Program-made: the position numbers and the translations under genes
Part shown: positions 42-11,705 of the stretch, in pieces
Numbering within the stretch: the stretch's first letter is position 1
How the letters are laid out: every line of letters begins with the position of its first letter
Assembly (NCBI RefSeq): GCF_024700885.2
Contig: NZ_CP117016.1
Reading direction: 5' to 3' (one strand)
Length of the DNA stretch: 64,000 bases
Source: Escherichia coli
GTDB lineage: Bacteria > Pseudomonadota > Gammaproteobacteria > Enterobacterales > Enterobacteriaceae
The notes under the pieces: model-generated
What the model was told of the DNA's origin: nothing
Database searches by the model: none
What the model saw: only the letters and a program-made list of their open reading frames with translations

Positions 42-1433
42 TCATTTCAACAACATCTCCAAAAACCGTTGCTCATCTTCAAGGCAGCGTAAATCCAGCC
101 ACAATCGTCCGTCATAAATACGACCAATCACCGGCACTGGCAATTCACGCCAGCGGGCGGCTAATGACTCAAGGTGGCTACCGCGTCCATCATGGGGTGT
201 AAACGTTAATGCCGCACTCGGCAGGCGATCAACCGGCAGCGAACCACTGCCAATCTGCGAAAGACATGGCATAACCTGTACCGCAAACTCCGCGCCGTAA
301 TGTGTGGCAAGGGGGGCCTGTAAACGTTGTGCCTGGATTTGAATGACCTCTGCGCTGCGGGTAAGCAGACGCAGGGTCGGTAATTTTTCACTCAGCGCCT
401 CAGGGTGTAAATAAAGACGCAGCGTGGCTTCCAGCGCCGCGAGGGTCATTTTATCCGCGCGTAATGCACGCTTCAGTGGATGGCTTTGCAGGCGGGCGAT
501 CATCTCTTTTTTACCAACAATAATTCCAGCCTGCGGCCCGCCTAACAACTTGTCGCCGGAGAAGCTCACCAGACTGACGCCCGCCGCAATCAACTCCTGC
601 GGCATTGGCTCTTTCGGCAAACCGAACTGGCTAAGATCGACCAGCGAGCCACTGCCTAAATCAGTCACTACGGGAACATCCAGCTCTTTGCCGAGCGCCA
701 CCAGTTCCGCTTCATCTATCGCTTTGGTGAATCCCTGAATGCTGTAGTTACTGGTGTGTACTTTCATCAACAGCGCGGTATTTTCATTCACCGCCTGACG
801 ATAATCATTAGCGTGCGTGCGGTTGGTGGTCCCCACTTCGTGTAGGGTGCAGCCTGCCTGACGCATGACATCAGGAATACGAAACGCGCCGCCAATCTCC
901 ACCAGTTCGCCGCGAGAAACCACCACCTCTTTCCCGCTGGCAGTGGCCGCCAACATCAATAACACCGCCGCCGCATTGTTATTAACGATACAGGCATCTT
1001 CCGCTCCCGTAATGCGGCACAGCAGCTGCGCCAGCGCCCGATCGCGATGTCCGCGTCCGGCGTCGTCCAGATCGTACTCGAGGGTCACTGGCGAACGCAT
1101 AGCCTGCGCAACGGCTTCCACCGCGGCTTCTGCCTGTAAAGCTCGCCCAAGATTGGTATGCAGCACGGTTCCCGTCAGGTTGATCACCGGACGCAGCGCG
1201 CTCTGCGCCTCCTTCGTCAGTCGGGCATCGACTTCTTGCGCCCAGTTTTCACACCATGCGGGCAGCGTCTGGCTGTCACGAATCACTTCTCGCGCTTCGT
1301 CAAGCATCTGACGCAGCAATTCCACTACGCGGGTGTGGCCATAAGTATCACGCAAAGAAAGGAAGGAGCTATCGCGCAATAAGCGATCAATAGCCGGAAG
1401 TTGACTATAGAGGGAACGCGTTTCGGTTGTCAT
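42..1433 (-). CDS. selA: L-seryl-tRNA(Sec) selenium transferase
   Basis: 463-aa ORF, N-terminus [19 protein letters not shown] matches recalled SelA; full length; gene order selA-yibF-rhsA. Confidence 0.93.
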
Positions 1434-1530
1434 AGGAAACCTGGCTGATCAAGGCCCTCTCACACGGAGAAGGGCGTTTAACATAACCACGGATTGTAAC
1501 GTGAGATGGGTCAGGAGGACATATCGCGCA

Positions 1531-2139
1531 TCAAGCCTTTGGCGGTTCGGTGCGAGCAAAACTTTCGCGGCTAAACAGGTTTTCGACCAGTTTGACTAAG
1601 TGTGGGCGGTCGACACACCAGCCTGGCGCAACGCGGCGGAAATTGAGATATCCGACGGCACAGGCAATGGCGATAGTCGCCAGATTGACCGTATCGGTTT
1701 TGAGCGTGCCATCGACCAGATATCCTTCCAGCACATCCAGACTGCGGTTGATTTTCTCCCGCTGGCGTAACAATTCATCTTCAGACTGCTGCGCCGCCGG
1801 ACGCGCCTGTTCACGCACCGATACCAGCCCGGCATCCATAATGCCATCCGCCAGCGCCTCAATTTTGCGCACCCGCAACGACTCCAGCGGATCGCGCGGC
1901 AACATCGCCGGAGCGACATTCATTAATTCAATATATTCAGCGATGATCGGCGAATCAAACCAACATTCGCCCTCTTCGGTCACCAGCACCGGCACTTTCC
2001 CTAACGGGTTAAATTGCGCCACGCCGTTGTCCGCGTTATAGGGCAGTTCATTAATAAATTCGAAAGTTATGCCCTTTTCTAACAACAGAATAGAAAGTTT
2101 GCGTACAAACGGGCTGGTGTAGCTACCGACGAGTTTCAT
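1531..2139 (-). CDS. yibF: glutathione S-transferase-like protein
   Basis: 202-aa ORF with GST-like N-terminus ([14 protein letters not shown]); position between selA and rhsA. Confidence 0.88.
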
Positions 2140-2367
2140 GCCGAGTCCTTTGTGCGAGGAAAAATATCAGTATGGCCTGGTGATGGGAAAAAGGGCAGAA
2201 AATGTTGATGGTTTGTTACTTCCCAATAAATCACATATTTATCATGGTGATATAAATATTTTCCTAATTGTTCTTATCTGACAGATATCTCACTTAAGGC
2301 TTTCTTATAAATCTGTAGGGTTTCGCCTGTCAGCAGACAAATAACCCGATAAAACAAGGATGAGCAG

Positions 2368-5300
2368 ATGAGCGGAAAACCGGCGGCGCGTCAGGGCGAC
2401 ATGACGCAGTATGGCGGTAGCATTGTTCAGGGTTCAGCCGGGGTACGTATTGGTGCCCCCACCGGCGTGGCCTGTTCGGTGTGCCCCGGCGGGGTGACGT
2501 CCGGCCATCCGGTCAATCCGCTGCTCGGTGCGAAGGTCCTTCCCGGCGAAACCGACCTTGCCCTGCCCGGCCCGCTGCCGTTCATCCTCTCCCGCACCTA
2601 CAGCAGTTACCGGACAAAAACGCCCGCGCCGGTGGGGAGCCTCGGCCCCGGCTGGAAAATGCCCGCGGATATCCGCTTACAGCTGCGCGATAACACACTG
2701 ATACTCAGTGATAACGGCGGCAGGAGCCTGTATTTTGAGCACCTGTTTCCCGGTGAGGACGGTTACAGCCGCAGCGAGTCACTCTGGCTGGTGCGCGGCG
2801 GCGTGGCGAAACTGGATGAAGGTCACCGGCTGGCCGCACTCTGGCAGGCACTGCCGGAAGAGCTTCGCCTGAGTCCGCATCGTTATCTGGCGACGAACAG
2901 TCCGCAGGGGCCGTGGTGGGTACTCGGCTGGTGTGAGCAGGTGCCGGAGGCGGATGAGGTGCTGCCCGCGCCGCTGCCGCCGTACCGGGTACTGACCGGG
3001 CTGGTGGACCGCTTCGGGCGCACACAGACGTTTCACCGTGAGGCTGGCGGCGAAATCACCGGCGTGACGGATGGCGCAGGCCGTCACTTCCGGCTGGTAC
3101 TGACCACGCAGGCGCAGCGGGCAGAAGAAGCCCGGCAGCAGGCCATTTCCGGCGGGACGGAACCGTCCGCTTTTCCTGATACCCTGCCGGGTTACACCGA
3201 ATATGGCCGGGACAACGGCATCCGTCTGTCTGCCGTGTGGCTGACACACGACCCGGAATATCCGGACAACCTGCCAGCCGCGCCGCTGGTACGCTATGGC
3301 TGGACGCCGCGTGGCGAACTGGCGGCGGTGTATGACCGCAGCAATACACAGGTGCGCAGCTTTACTTACGATGATAAATACCGGGGCCGGATGGTGGCGC
3401 ACCGTCACACGGGCCGACCGGAAATCCGTTACCGTTACGACAGTGACGGGCGGGTGACAGAACAGCTAAACCCGGCGGGCTTAAGCTACACGTATCAGTA
3501 TGAGAAAGACCGCATCACCATCACCGACAGCCTGGACCGCCGTGAAGTCCTGCACACGCAGGGCGAAGGCGGGCTGAAGCGGGTGGTGAAAAAGGAACAC
3601 GCGGACGGCAGCGTCATGCAGAGTCAGTTTGACGCGGTGGGCAGGCTTAAGGCACAGACGGATGCCGCAGGCCGGACGACTGAGTACAGCCCGGATGTGG
3701 TGACGGGACTCATCACGCGCATCACCACACCGGATGGCAGGGCATCGGCATTTTACTATAACCACCACAACCAGTTAACGTCAGCCACCGGGACTGACGG
3801 GCTGGAGTTGCGCCGGGAATATGATGAATCCGGCCGTCTGATTCAGGAAACCGCACACAACGGCGATATCACCCGCTACCGTTATGATAATCCACACAGT
3901 GACTTACCCTGCGCAACGGAAGATGCCACCGGCAGCCGGAAAACCATGACATGGAGCCGTTACGGTCAGTTGCTGACCGTCACTGACTGTTCCGGTTATG
4001 TAACCCGTTATGACCATGACCGTTTTGGTCAGGTGACGGCGGTGCACCGCGAGGAAGGGCTGAGTCAGTACCGCGCATACGACAGCCGTGGACAGTTAAT
4101 TGCGGTGAAAGACACGCAGGGCCATGAAACGCGGTATGAATACAACGCCGCCGGTGACCTGACCGCCGTCATTGCCCCGGACGGCAGCAGAAACGGGACA
4201 CAGTACGATGCGTGGGGAAAGGCCATCCGTACCACGCAGGGCGGTCTGACGCGCAGTATGGAATACGATGCTGCCGGACGGGTCATCCGCCTGACCAGTG
4301 AAAACGGCAGCCACACCACCTTCCGTTACGATGTACTTGACCGGCTGATACAGGAAACCGGCTTTGACGGCCGCACACAGCGTTATCACCACGACCTGAC
4401 CGGCAAACTTATCCGCAGCGAGGATGAGGGGCTGGTCACCCACTGGCACTATGACGAAGCAGACCGCATCACGCACCGCACCGTGAAGGGTGAACCGGCA
4501 GAGCAGTGGCAGTATGATGAACGCGGCTGGCTGACACAAATCAGCCATCTCAGCGAAGGCCACCGGGTGACGGTGCATTACGGGTATGATGAGAAAGGCC
4601 GCCTGACCGGTGAGCGCCAGACGGTGCATCACCCGCAGACGGAAGCACTGCTCTGGCAGCATGAAACCAGACACGCTTACAACGCGCAGGGACTGGCGAA
4701 CCGCTGTATACCGGACAGCCTGCCCGCCGTGGAATGGCTGACTTACGGCAGCGGCTGGCTGGCAGGCATGAAACTCGGCGACACACCGCTGGTGGAGTAT
4801 ACCCGCGACCGCCTGCACCGGGAAACGCTGCGCAGCTTCGGCCGTTATGAACTCACCACCGCTTATACCTCTGCCGGGCAGTTACAGAGCCAGCACCTGA
4901 ACAGCCTGCAGTATGACCGCGATTACACCTGGAACGACAACGGCGAACTCATCCGCATCAGCAGCCCGCGACAGACCCGGAGTTACAGCTACAGCGACTC
5001 CGGCAGGCTGACCGGCGTCCACACCACCACCTCAAATCTGGATATCCGCATCCCGTATGCCACGGACCCGGCAGGCAACCGCCTGCCCGACCCGGAGCTG
5101 CACCCGGACATCACCCTCAGCATGTGGCCGGATAACCGTATCGCCCGTGACGCGCACTATCTTTACCGGTATGACCGTCACGGCAGACTGACGGAGAAAA
5201 CCGACCTCATCCCGGAAGGGGTTATCCGCACGGACGATGAGCGGACTCACCAGTACCATTACGACAGTCAGCACCGGCTGGTGCACTACACGCGGACACA

Positions 5301-6555
5301 ATATGCAGAGCCGCTGGTCGAAAGTCGCTATCTTTACGACCCGCTGGGCCGCAGGGTGGCAAAACGGGTATGGCGGCGTGAACGGGACCTGACGGGCTGG
5401 ATGTCGCTGTCACGGAAACCGGAAGTGACCTGGTACGGCTGGGACGGCGACCGGCTGACCACGATACAGAACGACAGAACCCGCATCCAGACGGTTTATC
5501 AGCCGGGGAGCTTCACGCCACTCATCAGAGTTGAAACCGCCACCGGTGAGCTGGCGAAAACGCAGCGCCGCAGCCTGGCGGATGCGCTTCAGCAGTCCGG
5601 CGGCGAAGACGGTGGCAGTGTGGTGTTCCCGCCGGTGCTGGTGCAGATGCTCGACCGGCTGGAAAGTGAAATCCTGGCTGACCGGGTGAGTGAGGAAAGC
5701 CGCCGCTGGCTGGCATCGTGCGGCCTGACGGTGGAGCAGATACAAAACCAGATGGACCCGGTGTACACGCCGGCGCGAAAAATCCACCTGTACCACTGCG
5801 ACCATCGCGGCCTGCCGCTGGCGCTTGTCAGCACGGAAGGGGCAACAGAATGGTGCGCAGAATACGATGAATGGGGCAACCTGCTGAATGAAGAGAACCC
5901 GCACCAGCTGCAGCAGCTCATCCGCCTGCCGGGTCAGCAGTATGATGAGGAGTCAGGCCTGTATTACAACCGCCACCGCTATTATGACCCGCTGCAGGGG
6001 CGGTATATCACTCAGGATCCGATTGGGCTGAAGGGGGGATGGAATTTTTATCAGTATCCGTTAAATCCGGTTCAGTATATAGATTCAATGGGACTGGCAT
6101 CTAAATATGGACACTTAAATAATGGCGGATATGGAGCGAGACCCAACAAACCGCCTACGCCCGATCCAAGTAAGTTGCCAGACATAGCGAAACAATTAAG
6201 ACTGCCATATCCTATTGACCAGGCCAGTAGTGCGCCTAATGTTTTCAAAACATTCTTCAGAGCATTAAGTCCTTACGATTACACACTGTATTGCAGGAAG
6301 TGGGTAAAACCCAATCTGACTTGTACGCCGCAGGATGATCCCCAGTATCCAGGGATGGAGACAAAGACAGCAAGTGATTACCTGCCACAGACAACTTGGC
6401 CAACAACTCAATTACCACCAGGATATACTTGTGCAGAACCCTATTTATTCCCAGACATTAATAAACCCGATGGGCCAGCAACAGCAGGGATAGATGATTT
6501 GGGTGAAATTTTAGCTAAAATGAAACAGAGAACATCGAGAGGAATAAGAAAATGA
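2368..6555 (+). CDS. rhsA: Rhs polymorphic toxin: PAAR-like N-terminus, YD-repeat core, variable C-terminal toxin tip
   Basis: 1395-aa ORF; N-terminal [17 protein letters not shown] (PAAR-like); many YD/RYxYD repeats; core ends with the DPIGL motif near nt 6016-6030, followed by an AT-rich ~175-codon tip of unrecognised family. Confidence 0.93.
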
Positions 6556-7121
6556 AAAGAGCTTTGTTCTTTTTGCTGATGATATTCGTTAGTTTTGGTG
6601 TTATAGCTAATTGCGAAACACAAGCTAAAGATCAAGATTGCTTTACCATTTTCACTAAGGGTACTATTTTTTCCGCGTTTCCTGTCTTAAATAATAAAAC
6701 CATGTGGAGATGGTATCAGAATGAGGACATAGGTGAGTATTATTGGCAAACAGAGCTTGGTATATGTAAAAATAACAAATTCACACCAAGCGGGGCGAGA
6801 CTCTTAATTCTCGTCGGATCACTACGCCTTAATGAAAATCATGCAACCAAAGGAACGTTGCAGGAGTTGCTAAATACAGCAGAAAAAACGGCGTTTCTCG
6901 GCGATCGGTTTAGAAGTTATATAAGAGCGGGTATCTATCAAAAAAAGAGCAGTGATCCAGCTCAGTTGTTGGCAGTCCTTGATAATTCAATCATGGTTAA
7001 ATATTTTAAAGATGAGAAGCCAACTTATGCTCGAATGACAGCACATCTCCCGAACAAAGATGAGTCTTACGAATGTTTAACAAAAGTACAGCATGAACTG
7101 CTTCGTAGTGAAGAAAAATAA
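6552..7121 (+). CDS. putative cognate Rhs immunity protein, secreted (N-terminal signal peptide)
   Basis: start codon overlaps the rhsA stop (ATGA at 6552-6555); GAGG RBS about 10 nt upstream; N-terminus [21 protein letters not shown] is signal-peptide-like; AT-rich like the rhsA tip. Confidence 0.6.
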
Positions 7122-7289
7122 AATCTCTTCCTGAGAAAATAAATTAACTATTCGAAAAAATATGTTCTTAATGGGTATCCAGGAACACCAGAAGGTCGAT
7201 TTGGAAAAATGGATTCCGATGGTAAGAATATCATATATTCTGAATGTAATGTTTTACCCACAACTTTTGAGATTCGATAGGTGTAGAGC

Positions 7290-7637
7290 ATGAGAAACTC
7301 ACTAATATTACTTATTATGATATTGTTTACAATATCACACTCAGTATTTGGAAAAGAAAATTCAGCGGAAATTTTAGTAAATAGTCGTGAAATGGCTTTG
7401 GAATTATCATATGTTTATATTAAATATATATACGGGAAAGAAAAAGCAGAATTTCAGAAACCATATAGTATTACAGATGACAATAATTGTTGGAAAATCG
7501 AGGGAAAACAACCGAAGACGTTAGGAGGAAATTTTACAATACTAATAGCGAAAAAAGATGGGCAAGCGTTGGATGTAATACACAAAATAATCCACTGTTC
7601 AGACGATTCAAATATTTTACCAAGGTGTGTTTCGTAA
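7290..7637 (+). CDS. small secreted hypothetical protein, possible orphan immunity protein
   Basis: 115-aa ORF with signal-peptide-like N-terminus MRNSLILLIMILFTISHSVFG; has a frameshifted paralog at 9240-9507; sits in the Rhs-associated AT-rich region. Confidence 0.5.
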   Translation: MRNSLILLIMILFTISHSVFGKENSAEILVNSREMALELSYVYIKYIYGKEKAEFQKPYSITDDNNCWKIEGKQPKTLGGNFTILIAKKDGQALDVIHKIIHCSDDSNILPRCVS

Positions 7638-7839
7638 CTATTTTGTGTACAATATGACTCTACATATCGACGAAAAAACCACTTGATTTGACAGGAACAC
7701 ATTCAAAAAAATTTCTTTTTCATTTCAGGAGCGATTTTCATCTGTTACTTGAAGTATCTGTGAGATTAAGTGACTCCCCCTAACGTCGTACTAAATAGTA
7801 ATTACTGGCCATACCGGGAGCAGTATTCGGCGCTTCCCA

Positions 7840-8080: not shown

Positions 8081-8654
8081 TCAAGATGAGGCTGATATAA
8101 TGTGCGGAATGCCTGAGTATTTTTAGAATAGGGGGGTAATATGTTTGATAGAATATATCTTGGTGATCGAGCAATAAAAAATTGAATTTGATTTATGGAG
8201 TAAACAAATTAGAATTCAGGTTAATTTAATCTCAAGGATAGCCTATGGTACAACAGAATGGAATTTTTATGATAATGAAGACTTAGAAGATGGTTATTTG
8301 GTATTTTCAGATGTTAGTTTCTTCAATATAACTCCTAATGGCTCTATTCCAGATGATTATATAATTTCAATAATTACAGATAATGTCAATGTTGAATATT
8401 TTGAATCAACTATAGTTGCTGTTGGTCAAATTCGAAACACAAATGTTGGTGACATTGATAATATTGGTGAATGTCAAATTTTCATCAGGTATAAAGACAG
8501 CTGGATTGAGAATAAACTCAAAGAAAAAATAATTGAATAACCATGTTATGTATAGACATTTTAGATGGAACGAACCAGAGGAAGGCATGCCTCCGACTTG
8601 GGTTATATGGGCACGGAGTTTTAGTGTAGTGAACTCAACGACGCAAACCGAATA

Positions 8655-8720: not shown

Positions 8721-8792
8721 GTAGTATGGACACAGGCCTAAGCGAGGTTCTGGTTTTCAAATTTTTCGGGAGTTAGATGATTGGAGGAACAG

Positions 8793-9158
8793 ATGATAAG
8801 AATCGCATTTTTAATAACCAATAAATTTCTTGAGATAGATAGTACCACTCTTGCTGGATATGATTTTAGCGGGATGAATCTACATCGTGCCACCCTCAAT
8901 GGTTATTGTCTTGATGGGGCGAAATTTGAAAAAACTCATTTAAGAAATGTAATGATTCAACATACATCAACTAGAAATGCTGTCTTTCGCAATGCGGCTC
9001 TGATGAATGCTATTCTGAATAACTCAGATTTCACTGGAAGTGATTGTAGTAATTCAAGGTCAATAGGTGAAAATTTTAAAGCAATAGATAATCATGGGAA
9101 AGATATAATAAATGGAAAAGGATTGCCTAATGTTTGCAAAATACATGACAACGTATAA
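8793..9158 (+). CDS. pentapeptide-repeat protein, hypothetical
   Basis: ORF with GGAGG RBS 5 nt upstream of ATG 8793 (the track ORF begins at an in-frame TTG at 8781); sequence shows pentapeptide-like periodicity (GMNLHRATLNGYCLDGAKFEKTHLRNV...AVFRNAALMNAILNNSDFTGSD). Confidence 0.5.
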   Translation: MIRIAFLITNKFLEIDSTTLAGYDFSGMNLHRATLNGYCLDGAKFEKTHLRNVMIQHTSTRNAVFRNAALMNAILNNSDFTGSDCSNSRSIGENFKAIDNHGKDIINGKGLPNVCKIHDNV

Positions 9159-9507: not shown

Positions 9508-9611
9508 GTATGTAAGGATAAACAAACATCGTGTGTGCTGATGGCAGAGTAGGTGGAGGACTCCAGACAGTCAAACGATAGAAAAAGATAGTCTTTATGG
9601 AGGTTCCTGCA

Positions 9612-10454
9612 ATGTCGAATACATACCAGAAAAGAAAGGCAAGTAAAGAGTATGGTTTATACAATCAATGTAAGAAACTAAATGATGATGAATTATTTCG
9701 CTTACTTGATAATCGCAATTCATTGAAAAGGATTTCATCTGCCAGAGTATTGCAGCTAAGAGGTGGGCAAGACGCTGTTAGATTGGCAATTGAATTCTGC
9801 GCTGACAAAAATTATATCCGTAGAGATATAGGAGCATTTATACTCGGGCAAATAAAAGTTTGCAAAAAATGCGAAGATAGCGTTTTTAATATTTTAAAAA
9901 AGATGGCACTGAATGATAAAAGTGCTTGCGTTCGAGCTACAGCAATCGAGTCAACTGCTCAGCGATGCAAGAAAAACCCAATTTATTCACCTAAAATAGT
10001 AGAACAATCTCAAATTACTGCTTTTGATAAATCGGCTAATGTCAGACGTGCTACGGCATTTGCTATTTCTGTTATCAATGATAAAGAAACAATTCCACTA
10101 TTGATTAATCTGTTAAAAGATCCAAATGGAGATGTCAGAAACTGGGCCGCATTTGCAATAAATATCAATAAATATGATAATAGTGATATTAGGGATTATT
10201 TTGTGGAGATGCTTCAGGATAAAAATGAGGAAGTCCGTATTGAAGCAATAATCGGACTTTCCTACAGAAAAGATAAAAGGGTTTTATCTGTTTTATGCGA
10301 TGAGTTAAAAAAAAATACTGTTTATGATGATATCATTGAAGCTGCGGGTGAATTAGGTGATAAAACGCTACTTCCTGTTTTAGATACTATGTTGTACAAG
10401 TTTGATGACAATGAAATTATAACTTCCGTTATTGATAAGCTGAAGCGTTCATAG
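9612..10454 (+). CDS. yibA: HEAT-repeat protein
   Basis: N-terminus MSNTYQKRKASKEYGLYNQ at the internal ATG 9612 matches recalled YibA; repeated D/N-x-x-VR-x-x-A HEAT-like units; lies between Rhs modules. Confidence 0.8.
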   Translation: MSNTYQKRKASKEYGLYNQCKKLNDDELFRLLDNRNSLKRISSARVLQLRGGQDAVRLAIEFCADKNYIRRDIGAFILGQIKVCKKCEDSVFNILKKMALNDKSACVRATAIESTAQRCKKNPIYSPKIVEQSQITAFDKSANVRRATAFAISVINDKETIPLLINLLKDPNGDVRNWAAFAININKYDNSDIRDYFVEMLQDKNEEVRIEAIIGLSYRKDKRVLSVLCDELKKNTVYDDIIEAAGELGDKTLLPVLDTMLYKFDDNEIITSVIDKLKRS

Positions 10455-10495: not shown

Positions 10496-11305
10496 GTGCA
10501 GATGCTCGACCGGCTGGAAAGTGAAATCCTGGCTGACCGGGTGAGTGAGGAAAGCCGACGCTGGCTGGCATCGTGCGGCCTGACGGTGGCGCAGATGCAA
10601 AACCAGATGGACCCGGTGTACACGCCGGCGCGAAAAATCCACCTGTACCACTGCGACCATCGCGGCCTGCCGCTGGTGCTTATCAGCACGGAAGGGGCAA
10701 CAGAATGGTGCGCAGAATACGATGAGTGGGGCAACCTGCTGAATGAAGAGAACCCGCACCAGCTGCAGGGGCGGTATATCACTCAGGATCCGATTGGACT
10801 GAAGGGGGGATGGAATTTTTATCAGTATCCGTTGAATCCGATAACTGATATTGACCCGTTGGGATTAGCGACCTGTTTATACAGCATAACTTTAGGTATG
10901 CTTTCATGCGTTTCAGATACGCCAAGTGATGATAATTCTTATGGTGTGCTTACTATTTCAGTCGCCTCTGGTAATAATGGTAATAATATGCAATGTAAAA
11001 ATAATCCTGGTTGTACACACTTACAAAATAGAGGCCCAATACCTCCAGGGGTATGGAGCTGGAATGTTAATGGTCCTGGAGCAACTAATAGAAAACCTAA
11101 TGGTATACGTTTAGTACCGTCAGCAAATACAGAAACGTATAATCGTGATGGATTTTTAACACATAGTTGTTTAAACGCTTTTGGTCCATCTTTAGGACCT
11201 CGATTCTGTTCCGAGGGTTGTATAACTGGTTCATCTAATGACATGCAAAAATTAAATGAGCTAATATTTTCAGAGCCAGATAGCACATTAACAGTGACGG
11301 ACTAG
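10496..11305 (+). CDS. yibJ: orphan Rhs C-terminal fragment (3' core plus alternative toxin tip) with L,D-transpeptidase-like motif
   Basis: nt ~10472-10840 are near-identical to the rhsA 3' core (5616-6070) including [18 protein letters not shown]; the tip then diverges; tip contains H-S-x14-S-E-G-C-I-T (His codon 11162-11164, Cys codon 11219-11221); symbol is positional only. Confidence 0.7.
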
Positions 11306-11309
11306 AAAT

Positions 11310-11705
11310 ATGGCAAGGTTATTAACAATTGTGCTTTTTTTCTCTATTTCTGCGAATGCAGTTACTGTAAACCAATTTCAGAGAGAGTTGGATTTGGCAG
11401 ACAAGGCAATATTATGGGCACTAATATCAGCCAGTACCCAAGAGGGACGAAAAGCGTGTTCACTTAGCTATTTTTCATGTAAAGCCGCAGAGGCTGAACT
11501 CGGACTGGCATATATGGCTGCTAATGATAACAAGGCATTTCTCACATCCTTATCTAGAATAATGATGTACAAAATAGATGCTGGACTTTCCGAATCCTAT
11601 ACATGCTATTTATTAAGCAAGGGAAAGATCATAAGACCATATCTGAAGAATCTAAATCCACACCAACTTGTCGCTGATTGCATTGAAACTGTAAATAAAA
11701 GATAA
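11310..11705 (+). CDS. putative immunity protein for the orphan Rhs tip, secreted
   Basis: starts 4 nt after the yibJ stop; N-terminus MARLLTIVLFFSISANA is signal-peptide-like; AT-rich. Confidence 0.55.
   Translation: MARLLTIVLFFSISANAVTVNQFQRELDLADKAILWALISASTQEGRKACSLSYFSCKAAEAELGLAYMAANDNKAFLTSLSRIMMYKIDAGLSESYTCYLLSKGKIIRPYLKNLNPHQLVADCIETVNKR

Follow-up and report, generated by a model that had tools for sequence, protein, structure and literature searches.

The ybfO-ybfC module in armed form at the Escherichia coli rhsA locus: a probable periplasm-acting Rhs toxin and its exported immunity protein

We analyzed a 64,000-nucleotide (nt) stretch of Escherichia coli DNA (RefSeq assembly GCF_024700885.2, contig NZ_CP117016.1), referred to below as the window, and focused on a full-length Rhs gene and the open reading frame (ORF) that directly follows it. 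Judging from their sequences and conservation, the two genes probably encode an armed Rhs toxin that acts in the periplasm and its cognate exported immunity protein, YbfC. The pair is the long-annotated ybfO-ybfC module in armed form. It is an Rhs toxin-immunity pair with the less common feature of an exported immunity protein and not a new kind of system. An initial annotation, made from the sequence alone, had already suggested that the toxin acts in the periplasm or envelope. Our analysis lends this suggestion support, because both proteins have conserved cysteines and those of the immunity protein are kept or lost in pairs. The initial annotation did not include the identity of the pair with ybfO-ybfC, the exact boundary between the Rhs core and the toxin tip, or the orphan state of the module in K-12.

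An intact Rhs gene at the rhsA locus

Positions 5900 to 7700 of the window are 100% identical to the chromosome of E. coli strain MLI114. The gene order in MLI114 is selA, yibF, a gene for a 1395-amino-acid (aa) "RHS element core protein," a gene for a hypothetical protein of 189 aa, a series of Rhs remnants and immunity-type genes that includes yibA, and then yibH and mtlA. The Rhs ORF of the window is itself 100% identical to this RHS element core protein, which RefSeq annotation places between yibF and yibH. By gene order, the locus of the window's Rhs gene is the E. coli rhsA chromosomal locus.

Pfam found 16 RHS_repeat matches in the Rhs ORF (11 of them with an E value of ≤0.001), along with DUF6531 at aa 46 to 123 and an RHS domain at aa 1139 to 1175. 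The NCBIfam RHS_core model NF041261 matched at aa 1 to 145 (313.6 bits) and again at the C-terminal end. With both the repeats and the RHS-associated core present, the gene is classed by its domains as an Rhs/YD-repeat polymorphic toxin. At the start of DUF6531, aa 46 to 55 (window positions 2503 to 2530) resemble the PVxxxxGE-type N-terminal autocleavage motif of other Rhs proteins from type VI secretion systems (T6SS) (PMC8636562). The resemblance points to a possible additional cut close to the N terminus. There was no chaperone gene upstream of the Rhs gene in the window. The coordinates of the Rhs gene and of the other features described below are collected in Table 1.

Table 1. Features of the Rhs toxin-immunity pair and of the neighboring orphan array, in window coordinates
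Feature	Position	Strand	Details
Full-length Rhs ORF	2368-6555	+	1395 aa; PAAR-like N-terminal stub, DUF6531, YD/RHS repeats, RHS-associated core, variable tip
Predicted C-terminal autoproteolysis module	6016-6096	+	DPIGL (aa 1217-1221), 17 residues, DSMGL (aa 1239-1243)
Toxin tip (predicted)	6097-6552	+	152 aa; residues 1 to ~50 Pro-rich linker, ~50 to 152 conserved domain
Translational-coupling signals	6537-6555	+	GAGAGGA Shine-Dalgarno sequence at 6537-6543 in the toxin's last codons; ATGA stop/start overlap at 6552-6555
YbfC-family ORF, predicted exported immunity protein	6552-7121	+	189 aa; mature protein of 169 aa with four Cys
Signal peptide of the YbfC-family ORF (predicted)	6552-6611	+	aa 1-20; cleavage between V-I-A and N
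Orphan NTF2-fold immunity gene, own signal peptide	7290-7637	+	First member of the orphan array; annotation and sequence features
DUF6258	8181-8540		Orphan array
Pentapeptide-repeat ORF	8781-9158		Orphan array
yibA	9597-10454		Orphan array
Orphan Rhs core remnant (internal deletion) with an L,D-transpeptidase-like Tlde1 domain in frame	10496-11305	+	Pfam Tlde1_dom, E value of 5e-7
Imm57-type ORF	11310-11705	+	131 aa; signal peptide; annotation and sequence features

The variable tip begins after the second cleavage motif

In Photorhabdus laumondii Rhs1, as in T6SS Rhs proteins of this kind, two DPxGL motifs are located 17 residues apart, and the second contains the catalytic Asp (PMC8636562). 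The window protein has a module of the same spacing (DPIGL-x17-DSMGL), from which we infer that its catalytic Asp would be D1239 and that the cut would fall after L1243.

From DPIGL, there are 174 residues to the C terminus of the Rhs protein. This matches the AT-rich tip of roughly 175 codons that the initial annotation had counted from that motif. The same annotation had ended the Rhs core at DPIGL, at a sharp change in base composition, and the composition does change there. The GC fraction is 0.616 in the core, already 0.43 at positions 6016 to 6096, 0.436 in the tip, and 0.375 in the downstream ORF. At third codon positions, the GC fraction is 0.72 for the core but only 0.34 for the tip and the downstream ORF alike. 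An exchanged tip cassette usually shows such a drop. However, the variable sequence itself does not start at DPIGL. The tails of the window Rhs protein, of the orphan Rhs remnant farther downstream (10496-11305), and of K-12 RhsC are identical through YPLNP (aa 1234) and diverge from the next residue, and the RHS_core model reaches MGL (aa 1243). Therefore, the variable part begins 13 codons after DPIGL. A toxin released by the predicted cut would be 152 aa long, with aa 1244 as its first residue.

The tip matches no named toxin family

No named toxin domain, be it of the Tox-/Ntox-, Tlde1, Tae, Tle, or colicin type, was found in the tip or its relatives by Pfam (run on every member of the tip-family alignment), by NCBIfam beyond the Rhs core, or by PADLOC. 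PDB sequence and profile searches with the tip gave chance-level matches only. These results agree with the initial annotation, which could not assign the tip to a toxin family. It had named a match to a cytoplasmic nuclease family as one outcome that would speak against its proposal, and the family searches returned none.

One tip homologue is called "putative deoxyribonuclease RhsC," but this is a propagated name without a domain match. A colicin-M-like DxYD(x5)HR motif was also considered in the tip and rejected, because its first Asp and its His are missing and position 67 is not conserved.

The tip family is small. A full HMMER scan of 1.84 billion proteins yielded 28 representatives, and a profile search of 5.8 billion proteins yielded 40. 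The carriers in both searches were Rhs proteins or short fragments only, with no colicin, CdiA, or other fusion. They came from Escherichia, Salmonella (P0006 and P0009), Citrobacter, Phytobacter, Delftia, and metagenomes. A tblastn search of plasmids returned only misfiled E. coli chromosomal pieces.

In the tip-family alignment, 13 positions are conserved at ≥90%. Three of these are Cys (C66, C76, and C112 in tip numbering), and the others are P, G, W, F, and A positions together with D94, D134, and R151. No His or Ser is conserved. The tip as a whole is 14.5% proline and has a pI of 9.1. It contains no hydrophobic or glycine-zipper segment (19-residue Kyte-Doolittle maximum of 0.14). The AlphaFold2 (AF2) model places a basic amphipathic helix at its C-terminal end (residues 132 to 148), with a hydrophobic moment of 0.55.

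The downstream ORF is predicted to encode an exported protein

The YbfC-family ORF begins within the stop codon of the Rhs gene and has the features of an N-terminal signal peptide, both of which the initial annotation had pointed out. The signal peptide has a basic n-region (MKR), a 16-residue hydrophobic stretch, and V-I-A at positions −3 to −1. The 12-residue Kyte-Doolittle maximum of the ORF is 2.85, compared with −0.75 for YibA, a cytoplasmic protein of the same locus. The same features are present in 23 of 23 full-length YbfC homologue representatives and, as described below, a signal peptide recurs in 5 of 5 distant loci. The protein fits what is expected of a periplasmic protein exported by Sec and cleaved by signal peptidase I.

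We also applied a lipobox test. The window protein has I-A-N-C, in which Asn at −1 does not fit, so it is not of the lipoprotein type. E. coli copies of YbfC have Asp or Asn before the first Cys. In 9 of the 23 family representatives (P0044-P0058 set), the first Cys is preceded by Ala or Ser (for example, L-A-S-C or I-A-A-C), which fits a lipobox. Some members of the YbfC family may therefore be lipoproteins and others soluble periplasmic proteins.

As with the tip, there was no Pfam match for YbfC or for any member of its alignment and none in NCBIfam or PADLOC, and PDB sequence and profile searches gave chance-level matches only. Its structure model is a confident beta-sandwich with immunoglobulin (Ig)-like structural neighbors. 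The mature protein has two invariant cysteines, C11 and C156. Its other two, C2 and C53, occur together in 24 sequences and are jointly missing from four (L005, L007, L009, and L010). This paired presence or loss of the cysteines is the pattern expected from two disulfides.

The signals for translational coupling lie in the last codons of the toxin gene (Table 1). The conserved C-terminal R-G-x-R-K of the toxin is encoded by the same nucleotides as the Shine-Dalgarno sequence and start codon of the immunity gene (AGA-GGA-...-AAA-TGA). Therefore, part of the C-terminal conservation of the tip may not reflect toxin function. A promoter and terminator scan of positions 1900 to 7700 found 7, compared with a shuffled expectation of 5.1 ± 2.6, and we do not claim an internal promoter for the immunity gene.

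The pair is the ybfO-ybfC module of K-12

Positions 5050 to 7163 of the window match K-12 DNA at 96.6% identity, and the homology ends approximately 40 nt past the stop codon of the YbfC-family ORF. The gene annotated ybfC is 96% identical in DNA to the window copy, and the encoded protein is 92% identical to K-12 YbfC (P0027) over 100% of its length. Of the 152 tip residues, 3 differ between the two copies. By these matches, the tip and the 189-aa ORF of the window are the K-12 ybfO-ybfC module.

In K-12 (L008, in which positions 396 to 4915 are the rhsC region), the gene order is rhsC with a different tip, ybfB, the N-terminally truncated Rhs pseudogene ybfO, and ybfC. By this layout, the K-12 copy is an orphan module, whereas the window has the same tip on a full-length Rhs protein at another locus (rhsA rather than rhsC). 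The two copies share the tip, the partner, the ATGA overlap, and the Shine-Dalgarno sequence. However, the K-12 tip sits on a truncated pseudogene behind rhsC-ybfB and so is not deliverable. The main tip of K-12 RhsC is a different, very Cys-rich sequence, and its partner YbfB is small and strongly hydrophobic. YbfB is probably a membrane protein, and the K-12 RhsC-YbfB pair is probably envelope directed.

The module is widespread. The tip and ORF are carried by 3517 of 5426 complete E. coli genomes (approximately 65%), and in 844 genomes there is a match to the NTF2 gene that follows in the window as well. Among laboratory strains, ybfC is present at 96% DNA identity in K-12 MG1655 and in T7Express, a derivative of B. 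In a spread sample of 25 carriers, the tip was contiguous with a full-length core in 7 and had the K-12-like orphan layout in 18; this split between armed and orphan copies rests on whether the match was in one piece or two in the 25-row sample, and query coverage merges the rhsC core with the orphan.

Codon differences from K-12 in the tip number 3 nonsynonymous and 8 synonymous, a pattern that indicates purifying selection on the predicted toxin tip. The corresponding numbers for ybfC (window 6552-7121 versus L008 6463-7032) are 15 and 14. By these counts, the partner YbfC diverges faster than the toxin that it presumably binds. Most plausibly, K-12-type strains keep the orphan ybfO-ybfC module for its immunity gene. 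In the literature searched for ybfC, ybfO, and rhsC (b0703, b0704), the genes appear in gene lists only, with ybfC named once as a "putative secreted protein."

Tip and partner stay together in distant bacteria

Five distant loci (L002, L005, L007, L009, and L010) encode tips that are 33 to 47% identical to the window tip. Each of these tips is directly followed by an ORF of 188 to 197 aa with a signal peptide, which aligns to YbfC or shares its conserved motifs. The tip and a YbfC-like ORF co-occurred in 7 of 7 loci examined, and this ORF was the sole conserved neighbor of the tip. The pairing persists in other genera, down to identities of 33% for the tip and 20% for the partner.

The junction between the two genes is also conserved. 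The ATGA overlap is present in the window, K-12, L002, and L007, and L005 and L009 have a 1-nt gap. At each junction compared, a purine-rich Shine-Dalgarno sequence lies inside the last codons of the toxin gene (in K-12, this sequence and the overlap together span 6448-6466 of L008). In L009 (Delftia), a VgrG gene is directly upstream of the Rhs gene, and in L002 a Gp5_C/DUF2169 pair lies beside the module. These neighbors tie the tip family to type VI secretion.

The initial annotation had taken the tip to be horizontally exchanged. Our comparisons agree and extend this to the immunity gene. Because the homology to K-12 is confined to positions 5050 to 7163 and the module is found at different rhs loci in different strains, the tip and the YbfC-like gene are best described as one cassette that travels as a unit, in distant bacteria as well as among E. 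coli strains.

A neighboring orphan array contains a second candidate module

The YbfC-family ORF is followed by an array of orphan genes (Table 1), which also holds a frameshifted NTF2 gene. By its domains, the fusion of an Rhs remnant to Tlde1 together with the Imm57-type ORF behind it is a second periplasm-directed module of the locus. In total, three immunity-type ORFs in the locus have a signal peptide, which suggests that this Rhs locus collects periplasm-directed modules.

Farther downstream, a 1909-aa ORF at positions 20218 to 25947 has matches to models of trimeric autotransporter adhesins (Vomp, EmaA, Ata, and YadA types). This adhesin-type ORF is not known from this region of K-12.

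Discussion

We propose that the window encodes a periplasm-acting toxin and that YbfC is its immunity protein. The Rhs protein would be loaded onto the spike of a type VI secretion apparatus and shot into a nearby Gram-negative cell. The aspartyl-protease module would then cut after DSMGL and free the 152-aa tip. The tip would stay in the periplasm of the target cell, where its conserved cysteines would be oxidized and it would damage an envelope process. YbfC would be exported by Sec, fold as a disulfide-bonded Ig-like beta-sandwich, and bind the toxin in the periplasm, so that the producer, its kin, and orphan-carrying strains would be protected. Translational coupling would tie synthesis of the immunity protein to synthesis of the toxin.

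The conserved positions of the tip are mostly structural (P, G, C, W, and F), with two Asp and one Arg but neither His nor Ser, and the tip lacks a hydrophobic segment. On these grounds, we judge two possibilities about equally likely: the tip could be a novel enzyme directed at the envelope, or it could inhibit a periplasmic target stoichiometrically. A helical pore former of the classical kind is unlikely. The inhibitor version can be taken further. The tip might found a class of small, disulfide-stabilized, nonenzymatic periplasmic toxins that kill by binding stoichiometrically to some essential machine of the envelope (for example, a synthase of the cell wall or a factor in outer-membrane or lipoprotein assembly) and that are countered by an antibody-like Ig-fold immunity protein. 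This is a speculative idea, and we give it a minor but real chance. If true, it would mean that delivery of periplasm-acting cargo is routine for the Rhs cages of E. coli.

Several observations weigh against a delivered, periplasm-acting toxin. Pfam found no PAAR domain in the Rhs ORF. Its N-terminal "KPAARQGD..." stub gave a subthreshold match to the end of a T6SS PAAR model (aa 2 to 29 aligned with the final 27 positions of NF033420 at 15.3 bits, with a cutoff of 124), and on that score we do not call it a PAAR domain. No vgrG or other T6SS gene was seen in the examined part of the window, and none flanks the Rhs gene. According to a Salmonella effector catalogue, the toxin fused to a PAAR-Rhs carrier usually acts in the cytoplasm (PMC12994826). 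In the second cleavage motif, DSMGL, Ser replaces the canonical Pro of DPxGL, although the Asp is kept. The AF2 model of the tip is of low confidence (pLDDT of 57.5) and gave no fold match. Signal peptides were judged from sequence features and not with SignalP, and the joint loss of C2 and C53 in YbfC may represent only one or two evolutionary events. Finally, we found no support in the literature on ybfC, ybfO, and rhsC for toxicity, neutralization, or localization.

Some of these observations would also fit a decaying or nondeliverable relic, as are all rhs genes in K-12, which lacks a T6SS, with YbfC as a periplasmic protein that has some other role. The tip is on a truncated orphan fragment in K-12 and in approximately 70% of the sampled carriers, the literature searched gave no functional data, and DSMGL departs from DPxGL. 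However, the window ORF runs unbroken through 1395 codons, in frame with its tip, and the excess of synonymous over nonsynonymous differences from K-12 (8 to 3) is that of a sequence under purifying selection. Furthermore, the tip and its partner have stayed together in other genera, beside VgrG genes, and the second motif retains its catalytic Asp. We consider a relic improbable.

We give equally little credence to the idea of a tip that attacks the inner membrane itself from the periplasmic side, with the cationic amphipathic C-terminal helix lying on the outer leaflet and dissipating the membrane potential in the manner of Ssp6 or Tse4. The AF2 helix, its hydrophobic moment, and the conserved C-terminal Arg and Lys residues would suit such an activity, which would also be compatible with an exported immunity protein. 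However, the tip has no hydrophobic or glycine-zipper segment, and its R-G-x-R-K tail is also forced by the Shine-Dalgarno sequence and start codon of the immunity gene. In addition, a toxin active on membranes is usually countered by an immunity protein that is itself a membrane protein, whereas mature YbfC is predicted to be soluble.

Least probable is a cytoplasm-acting toxin, such as a nuclease, with an exported ORF that either is not an immunity gene or intercepts the toxin in transit: most characterized Rhs tips do act in the cytoplasm (PMC12994826) and one homologue has a deoxyribonuclease name, but that name is a propagated label without domain support, no nuclease or other cytoplasmic toxin family was matched at any threshold, the only conserved neighbor of the tip in seven loci is an exported YbfC-like ORF, and three conserved Cys in a domain of approximately 100 aa fit an oxidizing compartment.

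About two-thirds of complete E. coli genomes, including those of K-12 and B strains, carry this tip and its exported partner. For neither protein did we find a family name, a relative of known function with a solved or confidently predicted structure, or functional literature. If the pair is a periplasmic toxin and its exported inhibitor, what would be gained is a new envelope-targeting activity together with its inhibitor. Standard cloning and expression hosts encode YbfC and may therefore be immune, and activity of the toxin may have been hidden in routine assays. The locus combines an armed tip of the periplasm type with an orphan one (Tlde1), and three of its immunity-type ORFs have signal peptides. 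This makes it a tractable case for how Rhs cargo is released into the periplasm and acts there.

In architecture, the window pair resembles P. laumondii Rhs1-Tre23 and related T6SS Rhs effectors, which are cages with double autocleavage and VgrG mounting. Rhs1-Tre23 likewise has a YD-repeat shell, a pair of DPxGL-type motifs spaced by 17 residues, a tip of shifted GC content, and an immunity gene directly downstream (PMC8636562). It differs in that Tre23 acts in the cytoplasm and Rhs1 is found in a complex with an EagR chaperone (PMC8636562), whereas the window Rhs protein has no detectable PAAR domain and its immunity protein is predicted to be exported.

For the fate of the tip after delivery, Ssp2 and Ssp4 of Serratia marcescens offer a comparison. 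Periplasm-acting T6SS effectors can depend on DsbA of the target cell, and these two arrive reduced or unfolded and have their cysteines oxidized by the DsbA of the victim (PMC5792426). The three conserved Cys of the window tip would fit the same route. However, Ssp2 and Ssp4 are freestanding cargo effectors and not Rhs tips, and no homology to the tip was detected.

Salmonella Tlde1/Tldi1 is likewise a periplasm-acting T6SS toxin, an L,D-transpeptidase-like effector, with an exported immunity protein. A Salmonella catalogue lists Tlde1 as cargo in 4683 loci and as a fusion in 0 (PMC12994826 supplementary table). Unlike the cargo-only Tlde1 of that catalogue (PMC12994826), the Tlde1 domain of the window is fused to an Rhs remnant. 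This domain is in the same locus as the armed tip, but there is no sequence relation between the armed pair and Tlde1/Tldi1, and the main tip matches neither Tlde1_dom nor any other Pfam family.

The two states of the ybfO-ybfC module also have a counterpart. In Salmonella Typhimurium, orphan Rhs tips reportedly recombine onto the main rhs gene, a finding that is attributed to Koskiniemi et al. in 2014. As in those orphan modules, the same tip here occurs either as a silent orphan or on a full-length core, and the core homology in front of the orphan could serve as the substrate for recombination. The difference is that the two forms described here are at different rhs loci in different strains.

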